Assembly: GCA_002331185.1 (NCBI GenBank)
Contig: DCYW01000019.1
Location: forward strand, 1-55,346
Source of the DNA: Patescibacteria group bacterium UBA2100
GTDB lineage: Bacteria; Patescibacteriota; Minisyncoccia; Phycocordibacterales; UBA2100
Direction: 5' to 3'
Length of the DNA: 55,346 bases
Shown here: positions 3,506-52,862 of the stretch, piece by piece
Numbering within the stretch: the first letter of the stretch is position 1
How the letters are laid out: each line of letters starts with the position of its first letter
The notes under the pieces: generated by a model
What the model saw: the letters and a program-made list of their open reading frames with translations, nothing else
What the model was told of the DNA's origin: nothing
The model's database searches: none
Program-made: the position numbers and the translations under genes

Positions 3506-3623
3506 ATCCGCGAAATATACCATGAGTTTGCGGCAACTCAAACGGTAACAGTGCCTCACTGTCCGTACACCTTGTTTTCTGAACCTAAGAGCATCGTGGC
3601 ATCATTACATTTTTCGCTACATA

Positions 3624-3666
3624 CCCATCACAACTGAGGGCATCCGCTGCCCTCAGTTGTGATGGG
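3624..3666. repeat. Hairpin with 18-bp perfect stem and 7-nt loop
   Basis: cccatcacaactgagggc / gccctcagttgtgatggg. It lies between tig and clpP, with no U-tract on either strand. Confidence 0.9.
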
Positions 3667-3701
3667 TTGTACGAATAGTCTGGAATCACGTATACACATA
3701 T

Positions 3702-6351: not shown

Positions 6352-6388
6352 TAACACCCCCTGCTCGCGTAGCGAGCAGGGGGTGTTA
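6352..6388 (-). terminator. Hairpin downstream of ppa
   Basis: 17-bp GC-rich stem taacaccccctgctcgc/gcgagcagggggtgtta. Confidence 0.65.
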
Positions 6389-6989: not shown

Positions 6990-8318
6990 TTATTCTTTTT
7001 CTGCCCCTTCTGACTGCTTTGCATGCGCAGACATGGCAGGTAGGTCTTCAGTGTCAGTATCTGTTTCTTTCTTTTCTTCTTGTTCCGTAACTATCTCTTC
7101 CTTATGATCTTCAGTTTCTTCCACTGCTTCTTTTGTTTCGGTTGGTGCTGGTATCTCAACTTCTCCCTCGCCGTCAGTTTCAGCAAGTGCTTCTCCGTGG
7201 GCTGATTTAATATCAATACCCCAACCGGTGAGCTTTGCAGCGAGACGTACATTTTGACCTCCGCGCCCAATAGCGAGTGATTGTTGGTCTTCAGTCACTT
7301 CAACGGCTGCTCGTTTTTCATCTTCTGAAATTTCTACCGAAAGAGTTTCTGCTGGCGAGAGTGCACGTTCAATAAATTCACGAGTGTCTTCCGACCATTC
7401 GATAATATCTATTTTTTCTCCCCCCAACTCACTGGTTACAGTAGAAACACGTACTCCACGTTGTCCGACGAGCGAACCAACTGGATCAATGTGATCATCG
7501 TGTGTTACTACAGCAAGCTTTGAACGAGAGCCAGCCTCACGTGCAACTTCTTTTATTTCTATTGTTCCATTTGCAAGTTCTGGAGACTCAAGTTCGAATA
7601 AACGTAACAGGAACTGTGGGTGTGAACGAGATAATTTAAGGAATGTTCCGCGCGGGCTTTCATCTACTTTATATAAAAGAGCTCGAATGCGCTCACCTTG
7701 ACGATACCGCTCTCCTGGGATTTGTTCTTCGTACGGCAAAATACCAGTTGCACGTCCGAGATCTACATAGAGGTTTCCACGTTCGAATCGTTGTACGTGC
7801 CCTGAAACGACCTGACCTTCGTGTTCACCAAATTCTTCTATAATAGATACTTTTTCTGCTTCACGAATCTTTTGCATGATTACTTGCTTGGCGGTTTGTG
7901 CTGCAATGCGACCAAAGTCTTCTTGTGCTTCAAGAGGGAAATCTACTTCGTCATCAAGTTCAACTCCTTTCTTAATGAGACGAGCATCTTCTATCATGAT
8001 GTGGTGTTCGGGATTAAAGCGTGTTCGTTCATCATCGGTTGCTATTTCAGCCGGTTCCTCTCCGCCAGCTGCCGGATTCTCTTCCTCTGGACGGACAAGT
8101 GTTTCATCTACGACAATCTTTATCTGCTTAAATTCTACGTCTCCCATTTCGGTATTAAATGCAGCACGAATGATTTGACCACGTTTTCCGTACTCTTTTT
8201 TATACGCCGCGGCGAGTGCCATCTCGATAGCGCTGATGACCTTCTCACGGGGGATTCCCCGGTCTTCTTCTAACTCACCAAGGACTGAATTAATTACTTT
8301 CAAATCAAATAAACTCAT
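6990..8318 (-). CDS. nusA: Transcription termination/antitermination factor NusA
   Basis: NusA N-domain, S1-like and tandem KH segments (GRGGQNVRLAAKLTGWGIDI), and an acidic tail. Confidence 0.92.
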   Translation of the reverse strand: MSLFDLKVINSVLGELEEDRGIPREKVISAIEMALAAAYKKEYGKRGQIIRAAFNTEMGDVEFKQIKIVVDETLVRPEEENPAAGGEEPAEIATDDERTRFNPEHHIMIEDARLIKKGVELDDEVDFPLEAQEDFGRIAAQTAKQVIMQKIREAEKVSIIEEFGEHEGQVVSGHVQRFERGNLYVDLGRATGILPYEEQIPGERYRQGERIRALLYKVDESPRGTFLKLSRSHPQFLLRLFELESPELANGTIEIKEVAREAGSRSKLAVVTHDDHIDPVGSLVGQRGVRVSTVTSELGGEKIDIIEWSEDTREFIERALSPAETLSVEISEDEKRAAVEVTEDQQSLAIGRGGQNVRLAAKLTGWGIDIKSAHGEALAETDGEGEVEIPAPTETKEAVEETEDHKEEIVTEQEEKKETDTDTEDLPAMSAHAKQSEGAEKE

Positions 8319-8541
8319 AATTTTTTAGGTTACCACACTGATTTTTGTAAAAAGAAAGACCGACACAAGGTCGGACTATTCATAAACAGTATGTACTACG
8401 CAGTATACCGACTACCCGAAACCAAGTCAATACTGTTCGATACTGGACCAAGAGTGTTTTTGCACAGTGAAAAGAGGGCTTTGAATGTATGATTTGATAT
8501 ACTTACGTACAAGAGGGTGCAATAAGCACCTGTGTTATCAC

Positions 8542-10287
8542 ATGTACATTAATGACGAACAACTTCGCGAATTTTTAAGCGACTCAGGACTTGTTTCGCA
8601 GAAAAAGTTTGATAACGCTGTTAAAACAGCTACTGAAAAAGGTATTACGGTGAGCGAAGTGTTGGTATCAGAAGGAGAAATTTCTGAAGATGATTTGCGA
8701 CGCTCACATGCCTACGTACTAGGTATTCCTTTTGTTAATTTATCTGATTCAAAACCAGACCTCAATACACTCGCTCTTATTCCAGAACCTATTGCACGAC
8801 GCAATAATATTGTAGCGTTTAGACAAGAGGAAAATAAGTTGGAAGTTGCCATGCTCGACACCGACGACTTAGCAGCAATCGATTTCGTAAAAAAGAAGAC
8901 ACAACTTACGATTTTGCCACGGCTTACTGATGCCACATCAATTAAACAGATGCTCCGTTTATATCAAAAGACGCTCCGTGACGAACTAGGAGATGTTATT
9001 ACCCGTGAATCACAAACACTTGAAAAATTTGGGAAATTACAACCAGAGAATGAAAATGATTTACGAAAACTTGCGGAAGGAGTGCCAGCTGTGCGAGTGC
9101 TCGATTCATTGCTGCGTCATGCAATTGTACAAAACGCTTCTGATATTCATATTGAACCGCAAGAAGAGGCTCTTTTGGTACGGTATCGTATTGATGGAAT
9201 TTTGCATGATGCCATGTCGCTTCCAAGCAGTGCGACTGCTTCAATTACTGCCCGAGTAAAAATCTTAGCGAACTTACGGCTTGATGAAAAACGACTTCCA
9301 CAAGATGGGCGATTTCGAATGGAGACAGACGGCGATAGGGTGTCGTTCCGTGTTTCAGTACTGCCAACGTATCATGGAGAAAAAACAGTCATGCGATTGT
9401 TGCGTGAAGATGTATCTGGTTTTACATTAGAATCTCTTGGTTTTCATGGTGAAGGGCTTGAACGATCACACGATGCGACTCGAAAGAAAACAGGACTTAT
9501 TCTGGTGACTGGCCCAACAGGTTCTGGTAAATCAACAACGCTCTACACCATGTTGGATATTTTAAATACACCAGACGTGAATATCTCAACTGTGGAGGAT
9601 CCAATTGAGTATCAGATGAAACGCATAAACCAAACACAAGTACGACCAGACATTGGGTTCACCTTTTCCACAGGACTTCGCTCACTCGTGCGTCAAGACC
9701 CAGATATTATTATGGTTGGTGAAATTCGAGATCGCGAGACCGCAGCGCTCGCTATAAACGCGGCTCTCACGGGGCACTTAGTGCTTTCAACACTGCACAC
9801 CAACTCGGCTGCTGGAGCAGTGCCTCGCCTTATTGATATGGGAGTAGAACCGTTTTTGCTCGCCTCAACCCTACAGGTGGTTATTGGTCAAAGACTTGTG
9901 CGTACACTATGTAACGATAGAGAAGAATATAAATTATCCGCCGCAGAAATGAGAGGTCTAGAAGAGATGGCCGACCTAGGAGCAGTTTTGAAAGCGTTAA
10001 AAGAGGAAGACATTGTTTCTCAAAAAAGTACGTTTAAAAGCGTCTCTCTTTCAAAAGAAAAACCAACAAAAGAATGTGAAACTGGCTATAGTGGACGAAA
10101 AGGTATTCAAGAAGTGCTGCCGGTGACAGAGGGAATTAAGAAAATGATTCTCTCTGGATCTTCTGCTGATGCAATTGAAGATCAAGCACGAAAAGAAGGA
10201 ATGCTTACTATGCTCGAGGATGGTATCTACAAAAGCGCTTCAGGAACAACAAGTCTTGCAGAAGTGTTACGTGTTGTAAGTGAATAA
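8542..10287 (+). CDS. pilB: Type IV pilus / type II secretion assembly ATPase (PilB/GspE family)
   Basis: Walker A GPTGSGKST, Walker B DPDIIMVGEIRD, His box LTGHLVLSTLHTN. Start moved to the ATG at 8542. Confidence 0.9.
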   Translation: MYINDEQLREFLSDSGLVSQKKFDNAVKTATEKGITVSEVLVSEGEISEDDLRRSHAYVLGIPFVNLSDSKPDLNTLALIPEPIARRNNIVAFRQEENKLEVAMLDTDDLAAIDFVKKKTQLTILPRLTDATSIKQMLRLYQKTLRDELGDVITRESQTLEKFGKLQPENENDLRKLAEGVPAVRVLDSLLRHAIVQNASDIHIEPQEEALLVRYRIDGILHDAMSLPSSATASITARVKILANLRLDEKRLPQDGRFRMETDGDRVSFRVSVLPTYHGEKTVMRLLREDVSGFTLESLGFHGEGLERSHDATRKKTGLILVTGPTGSGKSTTLYTMLDILNTPDVNISTVEDPIEYQMKRINQTQVRPDIGFTFSTGLRSLVRQDPDIIMVGEIRDRETAALAINAALTGHLVLSTLHTNSAAGAVPRLIDMGVEPFLLASTLQVVIGQRLVRTLCNDREEYKLSAAEMRGLEEMADLGAVLKALKEEDIVSQKSTFKSVSLSKEKPTKECETGYSGRKGIQEVLPVTEGIKKMILSGSSADAIEDQARKEGMLTMLEDGIYKSASGTTSLAEVLRVVSE

Positions 10288-10290
10288 TAT

Positions 10291-11499
10291 ATGAAATTTA
10301 CCTACAAAGCAGAACGAGATGGTGAGACGTACACCGATACCATTGAAGCAACTGATAGGTTTGAAGTATATAGACACGTGCGCGCCGAAGGAGGCGCGGT
10401 AATTTCAGTGATTTCAGAAAAGCAAAATAACTGGAGTGTTACCTATTGGAATTCAAAATTCTCAACAGTAAAGGAACACGACAAAATTGTGTTCGCATCA
10501 AACCTTGCAGCTATGATTTCAGCCGGGCTTCCTATATCGCGCGCGCTTTCAGTGGCAGAGAGACAGGCAAAAAACCCTAAACTAAAGAGCGTTATATTGC
10601 ATGTGCGAGGGGATATTCAAAAAGGAGGCACGTTTCATGAGGCGCTTGGTAGATTTCCAGATGTCTTTTCGAAATTATTTGTCGCAATGGTTCGCGCTGG
10701 TGAAGAGTCGGGGACACTCGATGAAGCGCTTACAACAGTTGGCAATCAACTTCAGCGTTCGTATGAACTAAAAAAGAAAATCAAAGGAGCACTTATTTAT
10801 CCAAGCATTATTGTAGTGGCCATAGTCGGTATTGGATTTCTCATGATGACTGAAGTTGTGCCAACGTTGTCAAAGACATTCACAGAATTGGGGGCCGATT
10901 TACCAAAGGCAACGCAAGCAATTATTAATGTGAGTGATTTCTTAGTTAATTACACACTGCTTGTTTTACTTGGAGTCTTAGGTGCAGTGGCGGGAGTATA
11001 TGGAATTTTACGAACAGCTGGTGGTCAGCGTGGCAGAGATAAGATTCTTCTTTCGACCCCGCTAATTGGTGAGCTTGTGAAAGAAATTAATGCAGCACGA
11101 ACTGCTCGAACATTTGCATCACTTCTGGCTGCAGGTGTGGACATTTTGACCGCACTTCAAATTACCGGCGAAGTTGTACAAAATCATTATCACAAGGACG
11201 TGCTTAAAGCAGCAGCAGAAAAGGTGCAAAAAGGAGGCCAACTGTCAGATACATTTATGAAACGAGAAGACCTCTACCCGCCGCTTATGGGGGAGATGAT
11301 AGCAGTGGGAGAAGAAACAGGTGCACTTGCCGATATGCTTTTGCGTGTCGCTACTTTTTATGAAAGTGAAGTTGAGCAAAAGACAAAAAATATGTCGACC
11401 ATTATTGAGCCGTTTCTCATGTTGCTTATCGGTGTAACGGTTGGGTTCTTTGCTGTTGCGATGATTGGTCCTATCTACTCTCTTTCCGAAGCGTTTTAA
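10291..11499 (+). CDS. pilC: Type IV pilus platform protein (PilC/GspF family)
   Basis: Two GspF-type repeats with three TM segments, 3 nt downstream of pilB. Confidence 0.9.
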   Translation: MKFTYKAERDGETYTDTIEATDRFEVYRHVRAEGGAVISVISEKQNNWSVTYWNSKFSTVKEHDKIVFASNLAAMISAGLPISRALSVAERQAKNPKLKSVILHVRGDIQKGGTFHEALGRFPDVFSKLFVAMVRAGEESGTLDEALTTVGNQLQRSYELKKKIKGALIYPSIIVVAIVGIGFLMMTEVVPTLSKTFTELGADLPKATQAIINVSDFLVNYTLLVLLGVLGAVAGVYGILRTAGGQRGRDKILLSTPLIGELVKEINAARTARTFASLLAAGVDILTALQITGEVVQNHYHKDVLKAAAEKVQKGGQLSDTFMKREDLYPPLMGEMIAVGEETGALADMLLRVATFYESEVEQKTKNMSTIIEPFLMLLIGVTVGFFAVAMIGPIYSLSEAF

Positions 11500-11510
11500 C
11501 GTAATGGTAA

Positions 11511-11558
11511 CAATACAAAGCACACCTACTGATGCATCAGTAGGTGTGCTTTGTATTG
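11511..11558. repeat. 48-bp perfect palindrome with core CCTACTGATGCATCAGTAGG
   Basis: caatacaaagcacacctactgatg|catcagtaggtgtgctttgtattg is its own reverse complement. It lies between pilC and the first minor pilin, with no U-tract after it. Confidence 0.95.
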
Positions 11559-11603: not shown

Positions 11604-12065
11604 ATGAAGTTTCAGGTTCTTTATACGCGAGGAGTAGGATTGCTTGAGATTGTGGTGGGGGTGTCACTCCTGACAACCGTGTTTGTCGGCATGTTTGGGA
11701 TTCTACAACTTGGAACTCGGCTGGCGACAGATAACAAATCTCGTACTGGTGCACTTGCACTGGCGACTGAGCGAATGGAGTACATACGAAGTCTTGACTA
11801 TGATGATATAGGAGTAGTGGGTGGTGACCCGTCTGGTGCACTTGTTGCAAGTGTACCTATCAACCTCAATAACATCGCATACACGCAACGTACTTATATT
11901 GTATATGTTGATGACCCAAAAGACGGTATTGGGGGATCTGATTCAAACGGAATTACTGATGACTATAAACGGGTGAAAGTAGAAGTTTCGTGGATTGGGC
12001 CGAAAAACAACGTACGAGAGACCACGTTAGTAAGTGATATTGCATCGTTACTAATAGAATCATAG
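11604..12065 (+). CDS. Prepilin-type minor pilin (PilV-like)
   Basis: N-terminus ..TRG|VGLLEIVVGVSLL has the class III signal pattern (Gly, then Glu at +5, then a hydrophobic helix). Confidence 0.7.
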   Translation: MKFQVLYTRGVGLLEIVVGVSLLTTVFVGMFGILQLGTRLATDNKSRTGALALATERMEYIRSLDYDDIGVVGGDPSGALVASVPINLNNIAYTQRTYIVYVDDPKDGIGGSDSNGITDDYKRVKVEVSWIGPKNNVRETTLVSDIASLLIES

Positions 12066-12066
12066 T

Positions 12067-12663
12067 ATGAAGTATTACGCATCACAGCGCGGATTTACCT
12101 TATTGGAAGCAGTTGTATTACTCGGCATATTTGTTTTGATTGTTGGGGCGATTGTTTCTTCACTGCGGTATGTGTATCGAGGGCAGCGGTTTGCTTTCGA
12201 ACAGGCGGATGCTACTCGTTCAGCACGTACTGGTATTGAGCGAGCAGTGCAAGATTTGCGCGAAGCCTCAGATGCAGACAATGGTGCGTATCCGATTATT
12301 GCGATGGCAACAAGTAGTGTTTCTTTCTATAGTGATTACGATAATGATAATAAGATTGAGCAGATTCGATATTTTATAGATGGATCTGATTTTAAAAAAG
12401 GAATTATAGAATCAGCAGGAAACCCACCAACATATAATGCTGGAAGTGAGGTGGTTACTACTATCGCAACTGATGTTCGCAATAATGCAATTGGTACACC
12501 CATGTTTACTTACTATGATAAGAGCGGGGTGCTTATGAGCGATTATACTGATATAGCTCAATTAGCGTTCGTGACATTGCGACTTGTTGTTAATTTACAT
12601 CCAGAACGAGCTCCTGATGATTTCGAGCTCAGAAGTAGCGCTGCACTTCGTAACATTAGATAA
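12067..12663 (+). CDS. Prepilin-type minor pilin (PilW-like)
   Basis: Canonical QRG|FTLLEAVVLLGIFVLIV cleavage/methylation motif. Confidence 0.8.
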   Translation: MKYYASQRGFTLLEAVVLLGIFVLIVGAIVSSLRYVYRGQRFAFEQADATRSARTGIERAVQDLREASDADNGAYPIIAMATSSVSFYSDYDNDNKIEQIRYFIDGSDFKKGIIESAGNPPTYNAGSEVVTTIATDVRNNAIGTPMFTYYDKSGVLMSDYTDIAQLAFVTLRLVVNLHPERAPDDFELRSSAALRNIR

Positions 12664-12664
12664 T

Positions 12665-14068
12665 ATGAATCATTCTTCACAACAAGGAATCGTCATCATT
12701 TTAGTTTTGGTGTTTGCTGCAGTATTTGGTTTGTCAGTCTCAGCACTTACGAGTTTCATATTTAGCCAAGCGAAACTTGGAGCGGGAAAAGAAGTGCGTG
12801 AACAGGCACTGAATATCGCCGAAGCAGGGCTTGAATACTATCAGTGGTTCCTTACACATAATCCTGGCGATACTCAAGACGGGACTGGGGGTGTTGGGCC
12901 CTACGTGCGTACTTATTCTGATCCAGAAACAGGTGAAATAGGCTCGTTTAGTTTGGATGTCGTTGGTAATGAATCGTGTGGGATATTACAATCAATTGAC
13001 GTTACGTCAACTGGTACTGTGAACTCTGATCCCAAGTTTACTCGCACTGTTTTTGGAAGGCATGCTACCCCTTCCGTTGCAGAGTACTCATACATTATAG
13101 GCGATGATGTATGGGCTGGTGCTAATCGTGAAATTACCGGGCCGTATCATTCAAATGGAGGCATACGCATGGATGGGACTAATAATTCAGTGGTTACCAG
13201 TGCTGTCTCAAGTTGGTCAGAGAGCTTTAACTGCAACGGTGGGAGTGCGTCTCCTGGGGTGTGTGGCGATGGGCCAAATTCTACTTTGTGGCAATATCCA
13301 GGGTCGCCTATAAGTTTTGACGACATGGAGACATCTTTCCCGACAATAAAAACCGCAGCAACTACAGATGGTATTTATCTTGCTCCCTATGGCTCGACAG
13401 AGATAAATTGGTACGGATATATTTCTGCAGTTGACGGGTACCACCTCATCTTTAATGCAGACGGTACTGTTGATATATATCAAGTCACAGGTACGAATTG
13501 GACGTTTGGGTACCGCACTGGTATTGGGTATACACTCGATTACAATACTATAACCGCGGAGTCATTTATAGAACGAAGAACCATTCCCACTGACTGCCCA
13601 GTTATTTTTGTCGAAGATAAGGTATGGATTGAAGGAACCGTAAAAGGCAAGGTGACTGTTATCGCGGCTGACTTAGTAAACGCAGGGTATGATCCCGATG
13701 TCATTATTAATGACGATATTAATTACTCGGTACAAGATGGCTCCGACGGATTGACGGTCATCAGTGAGTTCGGCATTTATATACCACCGAACTCTCCAGA
13801 CAATCTTTCAATTAATGGTATTTTTGTTGCACAAGGTGATCGGTTTGGCAGACCATACTATGAAGGTGACGTGAAAACACAACTCACCATAAAAGGATCT
13901 ATTATTTCAAGTGGGCGAGTGGGGACTGCATGGTTATCTGGTTCCACAACTGTTTCTGGGTATCAAAATCGAGACAATATATATGATCGACTACAAACAA
14001 CAAATCCGCCCCCATTCACGCCATCGAGCACTCTTATTCCAGAATATATTCTTTGGCAGGAATTATAG
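12665..14068 (+). CDS. PilX-N-terminal-like large pilus-associated protein
   Basis: N-terminus QQGIVIILVLVFAAVFGLSV resembles the PilX N-terminal helix, followed by a 430-aa Gly/Thr/Asn-rich region. Start moved to the ATG at 12665, 2 nt after the upstream stop. Confidence 0.6.
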   Translation: MNHSSQQGIVIILVLVFAAVFGLSVSALTSFIFSQAKLGAGKEVREQALNIAEAGLEYYQWFLTHNPGDTQDGTGGVGPYVRTYSDPETGEIGSFSLDVVGNESCGILQSIDVTSTGTVNSDPKFTRTVFGRHATPSVAEYSYIIGDDVWAGANREITGPYHSNGGIRMDGTNNSVVTSAVSSWSESFNCNGGSASPGVCGDGPNSTLWQYPGSPISFDDMETSFPTIKTAATTDGIYLAPYGSTEINWYGYISAVDGYHLIFNADGTVDIYQVTGTNWTFGYRTGIGYTLDYNTITAESFIERRTIPTDCPVIFVEDKVWIEGTVKGKVTVIAADLVNAGYDPDVIINDDINYSVQDGSDGLTVISEFGIYIPPNSPDNLSINGIFVAQGDRFGRPYYEGDVKTQLTIKGSIISSGRVGTAWLSGSTTVSGYQNRDNIYDRLQTTNPPPFTPSSTLIPEYILWQEL

Positions 14069-14082
14069 TTGACGTGTGCTAC

Positions 14083-14118
14083 AAAAAGAAAGACTCTTGC
14101 AAAACGGTCTTTCTTTTT
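14083..14118 (+). terminator. Intrinsic terminator after the pilin operon
   Basis: Stem aaaaagaaagac/gtctttcttttt with a T-run. Confidence 0.7.
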
Positions 14119-14324
14119 GGGACCAACAATATATTACTGCATGGTTGGGGTGCCAGACGGTAAAGACATAAGATTGACGTGCAGATGTCTTGCGAAACGA
14201 TTCGCTGCTGCTTCACACAGGAATCTCTCTAAATCGTTTTCCAAATGGTTTATCCGACATAGTGAAAACTCCTTTTGCTGCACGTCTATCGGTATTAGAT
14301 AGAAAGACTTTCGATACTATAAGC

Positions 14325-14362
14325 GTTAACAGACCTACTGATGCATCAGTAGGTCTGTTAAC
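14325..14362. repeat. 38-bp perfect palindrome with the same 20-bp core
   Basis: gttaacagacctactgatg|catcagtaggtctgttaac. It lies 27 nt upstream of the tpiA ATG, after the pilin genes. Confidence 0.95.
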
Positions 14363-14373
14363 GAGTGGAGTGA

Positions 14374-14382
14374 TGGTATACT
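14374..14382 (+). promoter_or_regulatory. Extended -10 (TGgTATACT) 6 nt upstream of the tpiA ATG
   Basis: Sequence match only; no SD between it and the ATG. Confidence 0.4.
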
Positions 14383-14388
14383 TTCAAA

Positions 14389-19529: not shown

Positions 19530-19937
19530 ATGAATAAAATTATTTGCTATACGGATGGTGCGTCGCGTGGGAATCCTGGATTGGCATCAGCAGGGGCGGT
19601 TATTTTTCAAGGCGAAAGTGTACTCGCTGAGATTCGTTCACCACTGGGTGTTCAAACCAATAACTGGGCTGAATATGAGGCAGTGGTACAAGTGTTGCAA
19701 AAAATTAGAGAGTTAGACGTGTCGGACAGACGCATTGAAATACGTATGGATAGTAAACTGGTTGCTGAGCAACTTTCAGGAAATTGGAAGATAAAAAAAG
19801 ATACACTGCGCGAGCAATACAATAAGATCCAAGACATTCTTCAAGATGGTTTTGGAGACGTTGCATACGTCCATGTTCGACGAGAAAAAAATACCTATGC
19901 AGACAGGTTGGCAAACGAAGCGCTAGACGCTCAGTGA
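19530..19937 (+). CDS. rnhA: Ribonuclease HI family protein
   Basis: YTDGASRGNPG.., NNWAEYEA, MDSKLV, ..ADRLANEA: an RNase H DEDD-type pattern. Confidence 0.85.
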   Translation: MNKIICYTDGASRGNPGLASAGAVIFQGESVLAEIRSPLGVQTNNWAEYEAVVQVLQKIRELDVSDRRIEIRMDSKLVAEQLSGNWKIKKDTLREQYNKIQDILQDGFGDVAYVHVRREKNTYADRLANEALDAQ

Positions 19938-21379
19938 GTATGTACCGATTTCTCCCCGTATTATTCGGGGCGTTTGCCTTGGGGGTTGCAGCACGATCAT
20001 TTTATGAAGTTGGTTTGGCTTTTGTAGGCCTTTTTGTTTTGAGTGCCCTGTGTATACTCCTGATATCACTGCGCCAACTGTTCGCGGCATGTGCGATAGT
20101 TCTTTTATTCTTTGCCTTGGGAGTTGGGCGTATGCATATCGCGATACCTACTGTGAATACAGACATGCACACAGAAGGCACTATTGTATTCGAAGGCGTG
20201 GTTGTAAGAGAACCAGATATTCGCGAAACATACACAAATATAGTTGTTGCACGAAATGATACAGCACAAAAAGTATTGGTAAGGACAACTTCTTTTGAGA
20301 ATATTTTTTATAAAGATAGCGTGCGAATACGTGGAACTCTTGAAGTTCCTGAAAATTTTGAAGGTGACGGAGGAAGGATTTTTAATTACAGAGCATATCT
20401 AGCAAAGGACGCTATTTACAGCATAATGGCGTTTCCTGAACTTGAAGTAATTACCAGTCGCTCAACCCCAACAGGATTTCTCTTGGCACTAAAAGGTAGG
20501 TACTTGGAATCATTAAAAGCTATTTTGCCTGAACCTTCAGCGGCACTTGCGGGAGGCATTACTGTCGGTGAGAGGCGTTCATTAGGCGATGAACTCACGC
20601 AAGATTTCCGTGACACAGGGCTCATACATATTGTAGTGCTCTCTGGTTACAATATTGCGATTGTCGTGTTGTTTATTGTTGCACTACTTTCATTTTTGCC
20701 GACTAAACCGAGGCACCTGGTTGCTATTGGAGGCATCATTTTATTTACTATTTTAGTTGGTGCTTCAGCAACAGTGGTACGCGCCGCAATAATGGGGAGT
20801 ATTGCCTCGTTGGGAGTTGTGGCGGGGCGCACCTCTACTGCACTCCATACGCTCATGCTTGCTGGATTTGCTATGTTGCTATGGAATCCGTATCTATTGA
20901 TATATGATCCATCGTTCCAGCTTAGTTTCGTAGCAACTGCCGGATTGTTACTTGGAGTTCCACTACTTTTACCTCATCTTTCTTTTATTCCTGAAAAATA
21001 CGCACTTCGAGACATTTTCGCAGCTACTATTGCAACACAAATCGCTGTACTTCCGTTATTGGTGTATATGATAGGTGATATTTCATTAGTGGCAGTACTC
21101 GTTAATCTCCTCGTACTTCCGACAATACCCTTAGCTATGCTGTTTGTATTTTTGACTGGTGTAGTAGGAATGGTATTTCAACCACTCGCACTCTTGTTTG
21201 GAGTCATCGCGTACGCTTTCTTGTCGTATGTGATTTTACTCGTAGAGTTTTTTGCTGATGTCCCATTTGCGGTTATGAGCCTGCCAACATTTTCTTTTGC
21301 GTTTGTGGTTCTTGCATACGGGTTACTGAGTGCACTCGTATGGTATATACAAAGAAAAAACGGCTCAGTACAGAATTAA
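19934..21379 (+). CDS. comEC: ComEC/Rec2 competence channel, membrane part only (DUF4131-like plus competence domain)
   Basis: GLIHIVVLSGYNIAIV motif and about 10 TM helices; no metallo-beta-lactamase domain. Start is GTG 19934 (GTGA overlap with rnhA) or ATG 19940. Confidence 0.8.
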   Translation: MSMYRFLPVLFGAFALGVAARSFYEVGLAFVGLFVLSALCILLISLRQLFAACAIVLLFFALGVGRMHIAIPTVNTDMHTEGTIVFEGVVVREPDIRETYTNIVVARNDTAQKVLVRTTSFENIFYKDSVRIRGTLEVPENFEGDGGRIFNYRAYLAKDAIYSIMAFPELEVITSRSTPTGFLLALKGRYLESLKAILPEPSAALAGGITVGERRSLGDELTQDFRDTGLIHIVVLSGYNIAIVVLFIVALLSFLPTKPRHLVAIGGIILFTILVGASATVVRAAIMGSIASLGVVAGRTSTALHTLMLAGFAMLLWNPYLLIYDPSFQLSFVATAGLLLGVPLLLPHLSFIPEKYALRDIFAATIATQIAVLPLLVYMIGDISLVAVLVNLLVLPTIPLAMLFVFLTGVVGMVFQPLALLFGVIAYAFLSYVILLVEFFADVPFAVMSLPTFSFAFVVLAYGLLSALVWYIQRKNGSVQN

Positions 21380-21414: not shown

Positions 21415-22032
21415 CTAGTCTGCCGCCACGCTCACGTCGGACGATCCTTGGTTGTCATCTTGAATCGTCGAAGATTCGATTTTTTGACCAACCGCATGTG
21501 CGTCGATACGATGCTGCAAGCCAGTCATGGTGCCACGGAACCATTTCTTGTTCGTGAAACCAAGAAGTTTGGCCGTAGTTTGACACGTATCAGAGACAAT
21601 CTCGAGATCACTCGTTGGGATAGCGAATTCGTCGAGCACCATCAAAGCAGCGCGGAAGTGGATTCCTGACAACATTGAATTTTCGTTGATTGCTTCCATA
21701 AAGTTCATTACCGACTCATGCAGCAACATCAGATCTTCATGGTGTCCGATAGACATAGCCACGAGTTGTCCGTGTACGTCCGCAATGCGGGATATGAACA
21801 GCACACCGATGTGCTCAGCAGTCGTTTCGAACATTTTGAGCAGATGTCCAACTTCGCCATCGTCGACGGGAGATGTTGCATCCTTAGCAAAACGTGTCGT
21901 CGCAGCGATTGAGGCAATAGCAAACAATGTCTCACCAGGTGCTTCCCAGTCTGGCTGAGTCGCGATCGTTTCGAACAAGGTAGCAATTGCGGTGCTTGCA
22001 ACGAGCTGACGTTCGTGATTTCTTGATTTCAT
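21415..22032 (-). CDS. Hypothetical protein (orphan)
   Basis: 205-aa ORF from the ATG at 22032 (MKSRNHE..). No motif I recognise. Confidence 0.5.
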   Translation of the reverse strand: MKSRNHERQLVASTAIATLFETIATQPDWEAPGETLFAIASIAATTRFAKDATSPVDDGEVGHLLKMFETTAEHIGVLFISRIADVHGQLVAMSIGHHEDLMLLHESVMNFMEAINENSMLSGIHFRAALMVLDEFAIPTSDLEIVSDTCQTTAKLLGFTNKKWFRGTMTGLQHRIDAHAVGQKIESSTIQDDNQGSSDVSVAAD

Positions 22033-22150
22033 AACTGAAACCCTTCTTTTGAAAGAACAAACCACTCTCTTAGGGTGGTGTCCTGCAGGGTGCAGAACCG
22101 AGAAAAGGTATCATTCACCAATTATGTGTCAAGTTTTGTATGGATAAGTA

Positions 22151-22747
22151 TTACTGAGCAGAATCAAAACGTTCTGTAGCAACATCCCAATTGAGGTTTT
22201 TGAGGAACGCGTCAACGTGTTGCGCCTTTTCTGCGGGTAAGTAATCTACCATGTATGCATGTTCCCACATGTCTACGGTAAGGAGTATATCTATATCAGC
22301 AAGCATACCGAGTTCGTGATCTGTCGTCCACCAGACGTGTGGTTGCTTTGCTTTTTTATCCCAACCGAGTGTTGTCCACCCAGATCCTCGGCTCATGGCA
22401 ACTTGTTTAAAGTGCGTGACGAACTCTTCCCAGCTTCCATATTTTGTGGCAATCGCTGTGTCAAGTGCGGTTCCACGAGGTTCATCTGTTTTTCCACCTA
22501 CCCACTGCGAAAAATAGAATTCATGCATGCGCATTCCGTTAAATTCAAACCCTAAACGACGACGTGCTGATTCAATAGCAAACGCGTATTTCTCAGCATT
22601 TTCCTTCGTTAGATCGGCTACTTGCTCACGCAATATATTGATTTGTTTCACATACCCATTGTATAAACCAATGTGTACATCAAGTTGTTTTTCTGAAATA
22701 CCGTCTAGTTCTGGGAAATTAAATATTTGAGCTTCGTATGTATGCAT
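22151..22747 (-). CDS. Fe/Mn superoxide dismutase family protein
   Basis: C-terminal signature DMWEHAYMVDY and a typical length. Confidence 0.85.
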   Translation of the reverse strand: MHTYEAQIFNFPELDGISEKQLDVHIGLYNGYVKQINILREQVADLTKENAEKYAFAIESARRRLGFEFNGMRMHEFYFSQWVGGKTDEPRGTALDTAIATKYGSWEEFVTHFKQVAMSRGSGWTTLGWDKKAKQPHVWWTTDHELGMLADIDILLTVDMWEHAYMVDYLPAEKAQHVDAFLKNLNWDVATERFDSAQ

Positions 22748-22877
22748 ATAAATATAACTATGTGCTAATTACACGCATCATACCACGCACTTTTTGATAT
22801 ACCATCATAGAACACATAAGAGTAGCGACTTCATTCCCGTCTTTTGCTAAGTTTTTTGTGCACACGTATATATTGTA

Positions 22878-22901
22878 AATATACTGATGCATCATTATAT
22901 T
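22878..22901. promoter_or_regulatory. 24-bp near-palindrome AATATAcTGATGCATCAtTATATT (one mismatched pair) at the TrpR/YerC-like gene start
   Basis: Same TGATGCATCA core. It overlaps a TATACT -10-like hexamer (22880-22885) and the first candidate ATG. Confidence 0.6.
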
Positions 22902-23345
22902 GACACTATGGCTTTCGTGTCCAAAAAGGTTTTTTCTACAGAAACGCAGAAACGTATTCGACAGCAGTTTATTGAATTATTTGCACGACAAAGAACGCGC
23001 AAAGCTATAGCGACCGTTCTTGATCAACTTCTTACTGATACTGAACGAATGATGGTGGCAAAACGGATTGTTTTGATTCTTATGTTGCATAACAACAGTT
23101 CGTACTATGAGATATACGAGGCGCTTGGCATTAGTACCGACACATCTGCCAGATGGCACACACTACTTAAAGCAGGGGAATTAGAGGCAATCACGAAAAG
23201 TCTAAAGCAGAAAAAAAGCAGGGAACATTTATTGGATACAGTGGAGATTATTTTACGCAGCGGTATGCCACCTATTGCTGGGAGAGATCGTTATTCGAGA
23301 ACATTCCAACTTATAGCTGAGGTGAAACAAAAAAAGCGTTGGTAA
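22887..23345 (+). CDS. TrpR/YerC-YecD-like helix-turn-helix DNA-binding protein
   Basis: LLTDTERMMVAKRIVLILML..SYYEIYEALGISTDTSARW matches the YerC/TrpR-like HTH pattern. The start could be ATG 22887 (inside a palindrome) or ATG 22908 (MAFVSKK). Confidence 0.6.
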   Translation: MHHYIDTMAFVSKKVFSTETQKRIRQQFIELFARQRTRKAIATVLDQLLTDTERMMVAKRIVLILMLHNNSSYYEIYEALGISTDTSARWHTLLKAGELEAITKSLKQKKSREHLLDTVEIILRSGMPPIAGRDRYSRTFQLIAEVKQKKRW

Positions 23346-23349
23346 TAAC

Positions 23350-23367
23350 ATAATGATGCATCATTAT
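23350..23367. promoter_or_regulatory. 18-bp perfect palindrome ATAATGATGCATCATTAT at the start of the ComEC-MBL gene
   Basis: It shares an identical 17-mer, TGATGCATCATTATATT (23354-23370), with 22885-22901. Confidence 0.6.
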
Positions 23368-24234
23368 ATTTCGGGAAATAGACTAAAGATTAGCGGAGTG
23401 CTCATATGCATGATGTTGGTGATCACAATAATTATTTGGTATCCGATTCTTAATACTGAGAATCACAAAACTCTTTCTGTTTCGTTTCTTGATGTAGGGC
23501 AGGGCGATGCAATTTTTGTTACGACTCCAAGCGGTAGGCAGATACTGATAGATGGGGGAAAAGACAATAGTGTGTTACATCAACTCAATGACGTGATGCC
23601 ATTTTGGGATCGGTCGATTGATGTTGTTGTTGCAACACACCCAGATGCCGACCACATAGGTGGGCTCGTTGAGGTGCTGAAACGCTATCGTGTTGCCACT
23701 TTCGTTTATTCTGGGGTGGAACAGGACACACAAGAAAATAATGCGATACTATCTTTAGTTCTTGAAAAAGATATTTATTCAGTTGCTGCGAGAAGAGGCC
23801 AGACCTATGATTTTGGAGATGGGGTCACCATGACTATACTGTTTCCAGATAGGGAAGTACGTGAGCTCGAATCAAACGCGGCGTCAGTTGTTGCACGAGT
23901 TGACTTTGGCGCGCATTCGTTTCTGCTCACGGGGGACGCCCCAAAAATGATAGAAGAGTACCTGCTTTCTTTAGGGAATGATCAATTGCAAAGCACAGTA
24001 CTTAAAGCAGGACACCATGGGTCAAAGACATCAAGTTCTCCTTTGTTTGTTGGATTTGTAGCACCAGAGTATGTAGTGATGTCGCGTGGGTGTAATAACA
24101 GATACGGACATCCACACGAAGAAGTTATAGCTGTATTGAATAATTTTGAGATTACTACATTCGATACCTGTGATGATGGACGAGTTACGTTTACTAGTGA
24201 CGGGCAGATACTACAGATTGAGGGATTTGACTAA
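23353..24234 (+). CDS. ComEC-type metallo-beta-lactamase domain protein (detached C-terminal ComEC module)
   Basis: One N-terminal TM helix, then FLDVGQGDAIFV.., VVATHPDADHIGG, GHHGS: the ComEC MBL nuclease-like domain. Confidence 0.8.
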   Translation: MMHHYISGNRLKISGVLICMMLVITIIIWYPILNTENHKTLSVSFLDVGQGDAIFVTTPSGRQILIDGGKDNSVLHQLNDVMPFWDRSIDVVVATHPDADHIGGLVEVLKRYRVATFVYSGVEQDTQENNAILSLVLEKDIYSVAARRGQTYDFGDGVTMTILFPDREVRELESNAASVVARVDFGAHSFLLTGDAPKMIEEYLLSLGNDQLQSTVLKAGHHGSKTSSSPLFVGFVAPEYVVMSRGCNNRYGHPHEEVIAVLNNFEITTFDTCDDGRVTFTSDGQILQIEGFD

Positions 24235-30535: not shown

Positions 30536-30559
30536 CATTCGTAACAGTAGGGGAATTAT

Positions 30560-30597
30560 AAAAACAAAACGACACTCTTCAGTGTCGTTTTGTTTTT
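30560..30597 (+). terminator. Intrinsic terminator after fusA
   Basis: 17-bp stem aaaaacaaaacgacact/agtgtcgttttgttttt. Confidence 0.8.
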
Positions 30598-30782
30598 ATA
30601 CAGTTTCTCTTGACTCAGCACATGGTTTTGCTACCATGTGTCCACGCGTGTTGCGCGCTTTTTTATATTGTGTGCGCAGTGTGTAATTAATAATGCGATT
30701 GCACAATGTAGGGTAGCAGTTCTCGCGCCTCTACGTTGGGTAATCGTCGGGATGTACTCCCACTAATAATAAACGTAATTTT

Positions 30783-32395: not shown

Positions 32396-32419
32396 TAATT
32401 CTCTGCGAAAGCTACTAAC

Positions 32420-32449
32420 AAAAAAACCGCCCCTAGGGGCGGTTTTTTT
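32420..32449 (+). terminator. Intrinsic terminator after rpsJ
   Basis: aaaaaaaccgcccc-ta-ggggcggttttttt. Confidence 0.85.
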
Positions 32450-32533
32450 GCATACCCTATGTTTTTACTATGTTTAAAATGATACACTCGTTAGCAGGTT
32501 GTTTCTTATTCAGTCAGCATTGGAGGTATGCAC

Positions 32534-48580: not shown

Positions 48581-48625
48581 TCAACCATCTGTGACCAAGG
48601 TCGAACCTTGGTCACAGATGGTTGA
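48581..48625. repeat. Hairpin with 20-bp perfect stem and 5-nt loop
   Basis: tcaaccatctgtgaccaagg / ccttggtcacagatggttga, in the non-coding region after map. Confidence 0.9.
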
Positions 48626-52691: not shown

Positions 52692-52805
52692 GAGAAAAGC
52701 CGGAGGGCATTCCTGCTTAATTGCATTTACAGGGAGATTGAATTGTTCACTACCGTGGTAGCTGATACTGAAATCACCCACCTGGTATTCTCCAGGTATG
52801 CCCAC

Positions 52806-52848
52806 GGCACGTAAAAACTCGCTAGATTCTAGCGAGTTTTTACGTGCC
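52806..52848. repeat. Hairpin with 20-bp perfect stem and 3-nt loop
   Basis: ggcacgtaaaaactcgctag / ctagcgagtttttacgtgcc, 33 nt upstream of the beta-CASP RNase ATG. Confidence 0.9.
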
Positions 52849-52862
52849 GACACAAAGAGACA

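Follow-up and report, generated by a model that had tools for sequence, protein, structure and literature searches.

Why should a small regulator gene carry the same palindromic sequence just ahead of its start and again just past its end, and what could such a pair of boxes do? The question is raised by a locus in a stretch of 55,346 bp, which was analysed as a whole and is called here the window, from a marine, Kaiserbacteria-like lineage. The gene order at this locus is the ComEC N-terminal part (+), a 216-aa ORF (-), a superoxide dismutase gene (-), the HTH gene (+) and the MBL gene (+), and its elements are the following.

19934-21379, + strand: ComEC N-terminal part (DUF4131 and Competence domain), a gene separate from the MBL part
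22151-22747, - strand: Fe/Mn superoxide dismutase (SOD) gene, oriented away from the regulator
22873-22901, + strand: promoter-like pair TTGTAA (22873-22878), 17-nt spacer, TATATT (22896-22901), with the ATG 6 nt later
22878-22901, no strand: box 1, 24-bp near-palindrome AATATACTGATGCATCATTATATT (11/12 pairs), with a 16-nt core at 22882-22897
22908-23345, + strand: TrpR-like HTH regulator gene, 145 aa, beginning MAFVSKK
23347-23370, no strand: box 2, AACATAATGATGCATCATTATATT, with a perfect 18-bp palindrome inside (23350-23367)
23353-24234, + strand: protein with the C-terminal metallo-beta-lactamase (MBL) domain of ComEC, anchored in the membrane by its N-terminus

The 17-mer TGATGCATCATTATATT is found twice in identical form, and exact matching over the window places them at 22885-22901 and 23354-23370, as the original prediction had stated. 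With up to 3 mismatches allowed, 0.26 occurrences are expected by chance and the observed count was reached in 0 of 100 shuffles. The 10-mer core of the box is repeated at 11530 and 14339, and a scan of the window with TAMTGATGCATCAKTA returned four core sites with 0 mismatches each, no site with 1-2 mismatches, and two sites with 3 mismatches, which is the background level. Since sites with 1-2 mismatches are absent from the window, the four sites form a discrete set and not the tail of a distribution. No known RNA family and no tRNA was found in the window. The centre of box 1 lies 18.5 nt 5' of the regulator ATG, and the symmetry around it reaches 22870-22909 at 87%. Box 2 begins about 2-7 nt past the regulator stop codon, with its centre 13.5 nt past it, and its perfect palindrome overlaps the start of the MBL gene, as had been proposed, with ATGs at 23353 and 23356.

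The peptide M(M)HHYI can be read from both boxes, and the repeat might be fortuitous or might come from a duplication of coding sequence, both ORFs beginning MHHYI. We give this explanation practically no weight. The shuffle, flank-sharing and mismatch-scan statistics speak against a chance repeat, and the homologues of the regulator begin at MAF or MxH, not in the box. The regulator had first been drawn from the first ATG, at 22887, as a protein of 152 aa; its true start is 22908 and its length 145 aa, the homologues aligning from residue 1-2, as do the 606 representatives of the family with MAFVSKK. In two relatives, L002 and L117, a TAG in frame with the ATG of box 1 closes the box 1 frame after 5-6 codons. 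Because the regulator starts at 22908 and not at 22887, box 1 is non-coding, and a coding duplication as its origin is refuted by this and by the in-frame stops. The 24-bp near-palindrome attributed to box 1 was recovered, while its supposed overlap with the start codon of the regulator was not.

Box 1 fills the spacer between the -35-like and -10-like hexamers of the promoter-like pair, an assignment made from consensus matches that are no commoner than in shuffles. TATATT at 22896-22901 is a likelier -10 hexamer than the TATACT originally proposed, and both elements, as TTGYAA and TAYATT, are kept in L005, L002 and L117. The position of box 1 inside the spacer supports autorepression, and the geometry of promoter and ATG suggests a leaderless or near-leaderless mRNA for the regulator. 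Mirror-image promoter-like sites on the - strand face SOD, whose control may run through the box 1 region as well. That the TrpR-like protein autoregulates through box 1, its candidate operator, had been part of the original prediction, and it is now well supported by comparison of sequences: box 1 stands out as a phylogenetic footprint between divergent genes, the two hexamers enclose it, and in CPR homologues a palindrome is found equally far from the ATG.

The protein itself belongs to the TrpR fold. Pfam Trp_repressor (PF01371) matches residues 26-98 of the 152-aa ORF with 34.8 bits (cutoff 27, E 1.8e-8), and the AF2 monomer model (pLDDT 82) is an all-helical TrpR-like fold with an HTH. 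The top 29 Foldseek matches in the PDB are all TrpR, 3KOR or 3FRW, the best being E. coli TrpR, with target-normalised TM scores of 0.65-0.74 (0.67-0.74 for E. coli TrpR) and weak E-values (at least 0.17); by sequence, the closest solved structures are 3KOR, 3FRW and 3G1C. The protein falls below the cutoffs both of the TrpR equivalog (NCBIfam TIGR01321, 24.7 bits for 67.25) and of YerC/YecD, that is HisR (TIGR02531, 17.1 bits for 42.2). The CPR family, which comprises 606 representative clusters at 50% identity and is CPR-wide, is distinguished by a C-terminal GMPPxxGxGRW motif and two extra C-terminal helices, and has a conserved N-terminus, MxH[VI]SKK. The N-terminal HVSKK had raised the possibility of a serine recombinase, which was rejected: the model is all-helical, without an alpha/beta catalytic domain. 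Neither the window nor the related loci contain a trp or aro gene, the kind of target that TrpR proper controls with L-Trp as co-repressor; the trp, aro and his pathways are largely missing from CPR genomes. Our literature search found no description of this CPR regulator family or of its twin palindromes, only work on the HisR/YerC sister branch. In that branch, YerC is HisR, the histidine repressor, which binds 20-bp palindromes and often autoregulates, and TrpR and HisR relatives in general bind palindromes of 18-20 bp with frequent autoregulation (PMC9413887). The conserved 16-24-bp palindromes beside the CPR gene are consistent with the binding of a dimer to a palindromic operator.

Both boxes are present in the close lineages L005 (HTH 73% identical), L002 (HTH 87% identical) and L117, the latter being the closest genome, CP070993.1, a complete 'Ca. 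Kaiserbacteria' genome of 687,746 bp with 84% nucleotide identity. The SOD-HTH spacer contains only two conserved blocks, one of which is box 1 with TTGYAA, and elsewhere in this spacer L005 cannot be aligned. The core of box 2, at the HTH-MBL junction, is invariant in the four lineages (window, L005, L002, L117) and the N-terminus of MBL diverges. In L117 both boxes read TGCTGATGCATCAGTACATT and bear an identical change relative to the window; judged from these alignments, the two copies change together within one genome. The expected conservation of the box at orthologous comEC genes thus holds in L005, L002 and L117 and fails in L112, L113 and L114, which possess neither the HTH gene nor the box. 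These three lineages (69-73% nucleotide identity) match the gene order of the window between nusA and the genes for ribosomal proteins, and in them SOD abuts MBL directly, at a distance of 38-65 nt; no palindrome was found beside their pilin cassette and no HTH homologue within the 18-21 kb read, so that all four sites are missing there. L005, which is as distant from the window as L112-L114, carries the box-gene-box unit, and the unit would therefore have been lost or moved whole.

This block-wise behaviour could mean that the unit is a relocatable cassette, or a derivative of one, whose palindromes would be ends or recombination sites and whose dispersed copies, the giant palindromes and solo boxes, would be footprints, in loose likeness to REP sequences with their RAYT gene. 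Its presence or absence as a block against the constant gene order of L112-L114, the concerted evolution of the two copies (both L117 boxes are altered alike) and the differing genomic context between lineages all fit with such an origin, as do a weak similarity to the HTH of the IS630 transposase and a solo palindrome of L005, of another lineage's box type, at the PGK-HIT junction where L024 has a full cassette. We nevertheless consider a cassette rather unlikely. The protein (145 aa, all-helical, TrpR fold) has no catalytic domain, and an HTH-only protein without a transposase catalytic domain sets the unit apart from insertion sequences and transposons; identical multi-copy insertions are absent, the paralogues within one MAG being divergent; the context is stable in close relatives (window/L117/L005/L118; L006/L007; L026/L028); no target-site duplication was seen; and the window holds merely four sites in 55 kb.

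The pattern is not restricted to these relatives. A protein-similarity scan with a 5-sequence alignment, at one genome per species, yielded 28 loci of 25-40% identity, labelled mostly as Patescibacteria with a few Gammaproteobacteria or Lysobacterales, and two further lineages of 46-49% identity were added by look-up. Near-identical palindromes flank the regulator gene on both sides in 28 of the 32 complete homologous loci, which represent Saccharibacteria, Nomura-, Kaiser-, Levyi- and Woesebacteria, Paceibacterota and others. The centre of the upstream palindrome lies about 18 nt before the ATG (16.5-21.5 nt in most loci), the downstream palindrome lies 5-55 nt past the stop codon, and the two centres are 393-529 bp apart. 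Of the 23 regulator genes compared, 20 have an exact word of at least 15 nt in common between their 5' and 3' flanks; among the 389 other ORFs of at least 100 aa that served as controls, only 3 do. The commonest core is CGATATATCG, with TCATATATTAATATATGA, TATCAGTTAACTGATA and CGATTAATCG as others, and the window core TGATGCATCA fits the general form YGAT-NN-ATCR. The flanks of the core vary between lineages and match between both copies of one genome, the differences from copy to copy are often symmetric or compensatory (L013, L016, L020, L029), and the box class follows the protein clade. The 3' copy just past the stop codon belongs to the regulator gene throughout the family.

The reading that we favour, and to which we grant a fair though far from overwhelming probability, is that the boxes are predicted double-stranded DNA operators of the adjacent TrpR-like protein and that, with the gene between them, they make up an operator-gene-operator module conserved throughout a CPR-wide family. 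The palindromic symmetry often extends to +-13-21 nt, more than one dimer should need, which counts against an operator, and so do the compensatory differences between copies, which could equally indicate selection for pairing or template-switch correction. The helical phasing of 25 spacings (393-502 bp) shows no preference (Rayleigh p 0.1-0.24), which is neutral for loops longer than 400 bp and lends looping no positive support.

Could the palindromes act instead as hairpins, in RNA or single-stranded DNA, the HTH protein being incidental? The roles proposed for such hairpins are a terminator after the regulator, masking of the MBL start codon, and 5' and 3' stabilising stems. The 3' box does stand at the position of a terminator, also between convergent genes; long stable palindromes occur in several lineages (-14 and -16 kcal/mol in L007, z about -6 to -7); the window genome employs long perfect hairpins as terminators; and the compensatory differences point the same way. 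The boxes of the window, however, fold no better than shuffles (box 1, -5.4 kcal/mol, z -1.8; box 2, -3.7 kcal/mol, z -0.6) and yet are conserved in sequence, and the terminator scan does not call them; neither shows the stable G+C-rich stem with a U tract behind it that marks an intrinsic terminator. In 2 of 11 lineage sites the bases at +-6 do not pair, so that it is the sequence which is kept rather than the pairing. Box 1 cannot be a terminator since it lies between divergent genes, and its place upstream of the likely transcription start makes its transcription unlikely. From the poor RNA folds, the divergent setting of box 1 and the mismatches at +-6, boxes 1 and 2 behave as sequence-specific duplex sites. 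A hairpin would also leave unexplained why the same sequence stands on both flanks and why box class and protein clade match, and on the whole we find this explanation improbable.

The concerted change of the copies admits a further reading, namely that the module is not an ordinary repressor but a relocatable 'palindrome-plus-keeper', ancient in CPR, or a phylum-wide chromatin-loop or insulator element. The protein would then maintain, copy or recombine its own palindromes and seed copies that turn terminator-like elsewhere, and the concerted evolution of the palindromes together with their block-wise presence or absence would thereby be explained. We assign a low probability to this reading. 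It recalls the REP/RAYT systems, in which a small gene likewise lies between palindromic repeats with more copies at intergenic, terminator-like positions; the CPR protein differs from a RAYT in being an HTH protein of TrpR fold with no HUH/Y1 catalytic domain, and the CPR box, apparently of very low copy number with four in 55 kb, differs from the REPs, which are dispersed by tens to hundreds.

Under the operator reading, the following mechanism can be proposed. A dimer of the regulator, with whatever effector it might respond to, would bind box 1 and cover the -35/-10 spacer and the -10 region, thereby switching off the regulator's own, probably leaderless, promoter; the sign of the regulation would thus be negative. 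A second dimer would occupy the near-identical box past the stop codon. The two bound boxes might cooperate in a loop of about 470 bp around the gene or act as independent roadblocks, and in the roadblock version a low-level, autoregulated gene would be insulated from neighbouring transcription. In the window lineage, box 2 would also gate MBL, and the copies at the apex of the terminator-like palindromes that flank the pilin cassette may bring the pilin genes into the regulon.

The case of MBL deserves attention, since the original prediction had the regulator controlling its downstream neighbour. The first six codons of MBL (MMHHYI) come from box 2, with the start codons at 23353 and 23356, and a conserved positively charged region ahead of the hydrophobic helix is found downstream of the box ATG only; because this basic stretch precedes the membrane helix, the box 2 ATG is the only plausible start. 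As box 2 supplies the start codon, transcription of MBL would pass through the repressible module or begin in it, and MBL is probably co-regulated with the regulator in the window lineage. An effect on MBL is therefore likely, as predicted, but box 2 does not exist for it. The HTH-MBL adjacency is limited to the relatives of the window, out to 49% identity. Elsewhere the downstream neighbours are EF-P, RNase J, M16/M48 peptidases, NUDIX, HIT or release factor, in seven loci the downstream neighbour is convergent, and the upstream neighbours include RecA, RmuC, aminoacyl-tRNA synthetases and PGK. Since the 3' copy is kept whatever the neighbour, convergent ones included, box 2 is not MBL-specific; it would not owe its presence to ComEC-MBL, and the effect on MBL would be a by-product of the layout.

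The other two core sites lie some distance away, around the pilin-like genes:

11511-11558, no strand: giant palindrome 1, perfect over 48 bp, its apex formed by the box core, starting 12 nt past the pilC stop
11604-14068, + strand: pilin-like cassette of three genes with N-terminal methylation or PilX_N signals, between the giant palindromes
14324-14363, no strand: giant palindrome 2, 40 bp, perfect, its centre 45.5 nt before the triosephosphate isomerase (TIM) ATG

The presence of the core in both giant palindromes was confirmed, at 11530 and 14339, inside the 48-bp and 40-bp palindromes respectively, which share the 20-bp apex CCTACTGATGCATCAGTAGG. The first of them is centred some 70 nt upstream of the first pilin-like gene. 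As RNA they would fold with -36.7 and -30.0 kcal/mol, with weak T tails, and are as stable as the ordinary terminator-like hairpins of the window (-25.7 and -22.8 kcal/mol), a stability that favours a hairpin role. At the position of giant palindrome 1, CP070993.1 carries a 24-bp palindrome, AACATACTGATGCATCAGTATGTT, 24 nt past pilC, with the same core and other flanks. Giant palindrome 2 lies inside a stretch of about 300 nt unique to the window genome and was not found in CP070993.1, L005, L115 or L112-L114. The small pilus/ComEC regulon that had been suggested is thus sustained at one end, where the site after pilC is kept in CP070993.1, and weakened at the other, where the pre-TIM site is window-specific. 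At about -45 and -70, neither giant palindrome is placed as a repressor site would be, and one lacks conservation, which speaks against reading them as operators. The pilC-side site looks functional from this comparison, and the giant palindromes may have a double role, in termination and in binding. One search of metagenomes with YMTAMTGATGCATCAKTAKR produced 78 loci; an HTH homologue was present in none of them and any similarity to the window in only two, which is essentially the chance background and delimits no regulon.

The vicinity of ComEC and of type IV pilus genes, and the ATGCAT within the core, could also suggest that the boxes are the sites of another system, such as restriction-modification or methylation (ATGCAT, GCATC), DNA uptake, or replication and segregation. 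This we judge very unlikely, the pattern following the HTH gene family-wide and not the competence genes. Each of these systems was considered and rejected in turn: ATGCAT is not avoided (19 observed for about 17 expected), which speaks against a restriction or methylation site; four copies in 55,346 bp are far too few for a DNA uptake sequence, known uptake sequences having a density of roughly one per kb; and no turn of the GC skew occurs at the locus, which speaks against a replication origin or terminus.

Compared with known regulators, the operator-gene-operator module shares most with E. coli TrpR (1TRO) and the YerC/HisR branch: the fold is common to all, the protein is small and probably dimeric, the predicted operators have palindromic symmetry over about 16-20 bp, and one site lies over the gene's own promoter, as in many TrpR/HisR genes (PMC9413887). 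The operator of the window lineage can be written nACT-N8-AGTn, which resembles the half-site spacing of TrpR. The differences are equally clear. The CPR regulator is about 40 residues longer than TrpR/YerC and carries GMPPxxGxGRW and MxH[VI]SKK; HisR/YerC (TIGR02531) has about 100 aa and recognizes the motif cacTTTAnnnnnnTAAAgtg upstream of his genes, whereas the CPR regulator has 145 aa and another motif; no trp, aro or his targets lie near the CPR gene; and an operator past the stop codon is undescribed for TrpR or HisR.

Two similar operators hundreds of bp apart, one of them at a promoter, are likewise found with LacI (O1/O2), GalR (OE/OI) and lambda CI (OL/OR), and in lambda the OL/OR pair brackets the repressor gene cI as the boxes bracket the CPR gene. 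Looping repressors bridge two sites as tetramers or larger assemblies, and they use at least two operators at least 100 bp apart; such a pair of sites is found here, a spacing of about 420-480 bp being favourable. These repressors belong to unrelated protein families, and in the CPR family, unlike in them, nearly all lineages have the second site directly behind the stop codon, and the two sites hardly differ over 16-30 bp. PurR at purB and the intragenic sites of CcpA and CodY also place an operator past a promoter, at a gene junction, and a similar block of the polymerase before MBL would be possible; the CPR site differs from these roadblocks in being a copy of the autoregulatory operator, kept even with a convergent neighbour.

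The most useful result of this analysis is, in our view, the family-wide operator-gene-operator signature, which would be a new variant of TrpR-type autoregulation. Its conserved layout offers a clean natural case of autoregulation from bracketing sites. CPR/Patescibacteria represent a large share of bacterial diversity and, to our knowledge, possess few transcription factors; the module opens a first way into the study of gene control in ultra-small bacteria. The probable motif of each lineage can be read from the two flanks of the gene, and regulons could therefore be predicted by scanning CPR genomes. In the window lineage, the module could gate DNA uptake, since it is directly linked to the nuclease half of ComEC and lies beside type IV pilin genes; ComEC is usually split in CPR, and CPR organisms are thought to depend on DNA uptake for nucleotides (PMC6744442). 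In the genetically tractable Saccharibacteria, the orthologue of the regulator lies between recA and efp and provides a concrete target.

The box, the palindromic candidate operator whose copies flank the TrpR-like regulator gene, also occurs outside this arrangement. In L005, a relative of the window, AAAAACCTATCAGTTAACTGATAGGTTTTT forms a solo terminator-like palindrome between the convergent PGK and HIT genes (2746-2775), and its 20-nt core is the same as that of the boxes around the regulator gene of L118, which belongs to a different lineage. The whole box-gene-box unit is found in L024 (4960-5464), placed exactly between PGK and HIT. The L005 palindrome could be the scar of a lost cassette, or a site targeted by a second paralogue. 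Third copies of a locus's own box are also present in other lineages, and all these intervals are listed below.

Intervals of L118 compared with the L005 solo palindrome, and extra box copies in other lineages
L118, 611-648, 765-806 and 1243-1270: intervals compared with the solo palindrome
L017, 8634-8663: third box copy, about 80-110 nt upstream of the gene of a 751-aa M23 peptidase
L010, 4863-4880: the second of two upstream copies, which lie 110 nt apart
L120, 929-956: second downstream copy

Two metagenome contigs, L047 (about 1300-1400) and L077 (about 2350-2450), carry palindromes about 90 bp long whose apex is again TACTGATGCATCAGTA; no ORF is present near either palindrome, and these could be artefacts of assembly or hairpin elements of an unrelated kind.

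The spacer between SOD and the regulator gene holds a second conserved block, GTGCTAATTAcaCGCATCATACCA (window 22765-22790), which is also found in L117 and L005 (alignment A4) and contains GCATCAT, half of the box. About 22 nt past this block, the window and L117 carry CCATCATAG, which resembles the GCATCAT half-site. The block and CCATCATAG could represent half-operators, or else the promoter of SOD.

ComEC is split in the window into a Competence-domain gene (19934-21379) and a membrane-anchored MBL gene (23353-24234), with about 2 kb between them. The closest genome, CP070993.1, lacks two stretches of the window, and the features concerned are as follows.

Window stretches missing from CP070993.1, with the hairpin that one of them carries
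21415-22065 (-): 216-aa ORF without family match, between ComEC-N and SOD
14069-14388: about 300 nt preceding TIM, with giant palindrome 2 and a separate hairpin
14082-14119: this terminator-like hairpin, distinct from giant palindrome 2, before TIM

The PilC proteins of the window (10291-11499) and of CP070993.1 (L115 10001-11209) are 98% identical, against 84% for the DNA of the whole region, which reflects either a very strong constraint or a recent exchange of pilus genes.

Long perfect inverted repeats with loops of zero to five nt are numerous in the window (3623-3667, 6352-6388, 30557-30600, 32419-32450, 48581-48625 and 52805-52849). Of these, at least the repeats at 30557-30600 and 32419-32450 come after gene ends, and unusually long perfect hairpins seem to serve the genome as terminators. 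The GC skew switches sign within 8000-10000, at the divergent nusA(-)/pilB(+) junction; gene orientation alone may account for it, but an origin-like switch is possible. Finally, L114 (19319-19886) is the only relative with a PemK/PhdYeFM toxin-antitoxin pair inserted 3' of the S12-S7 ribosomal protein genes.
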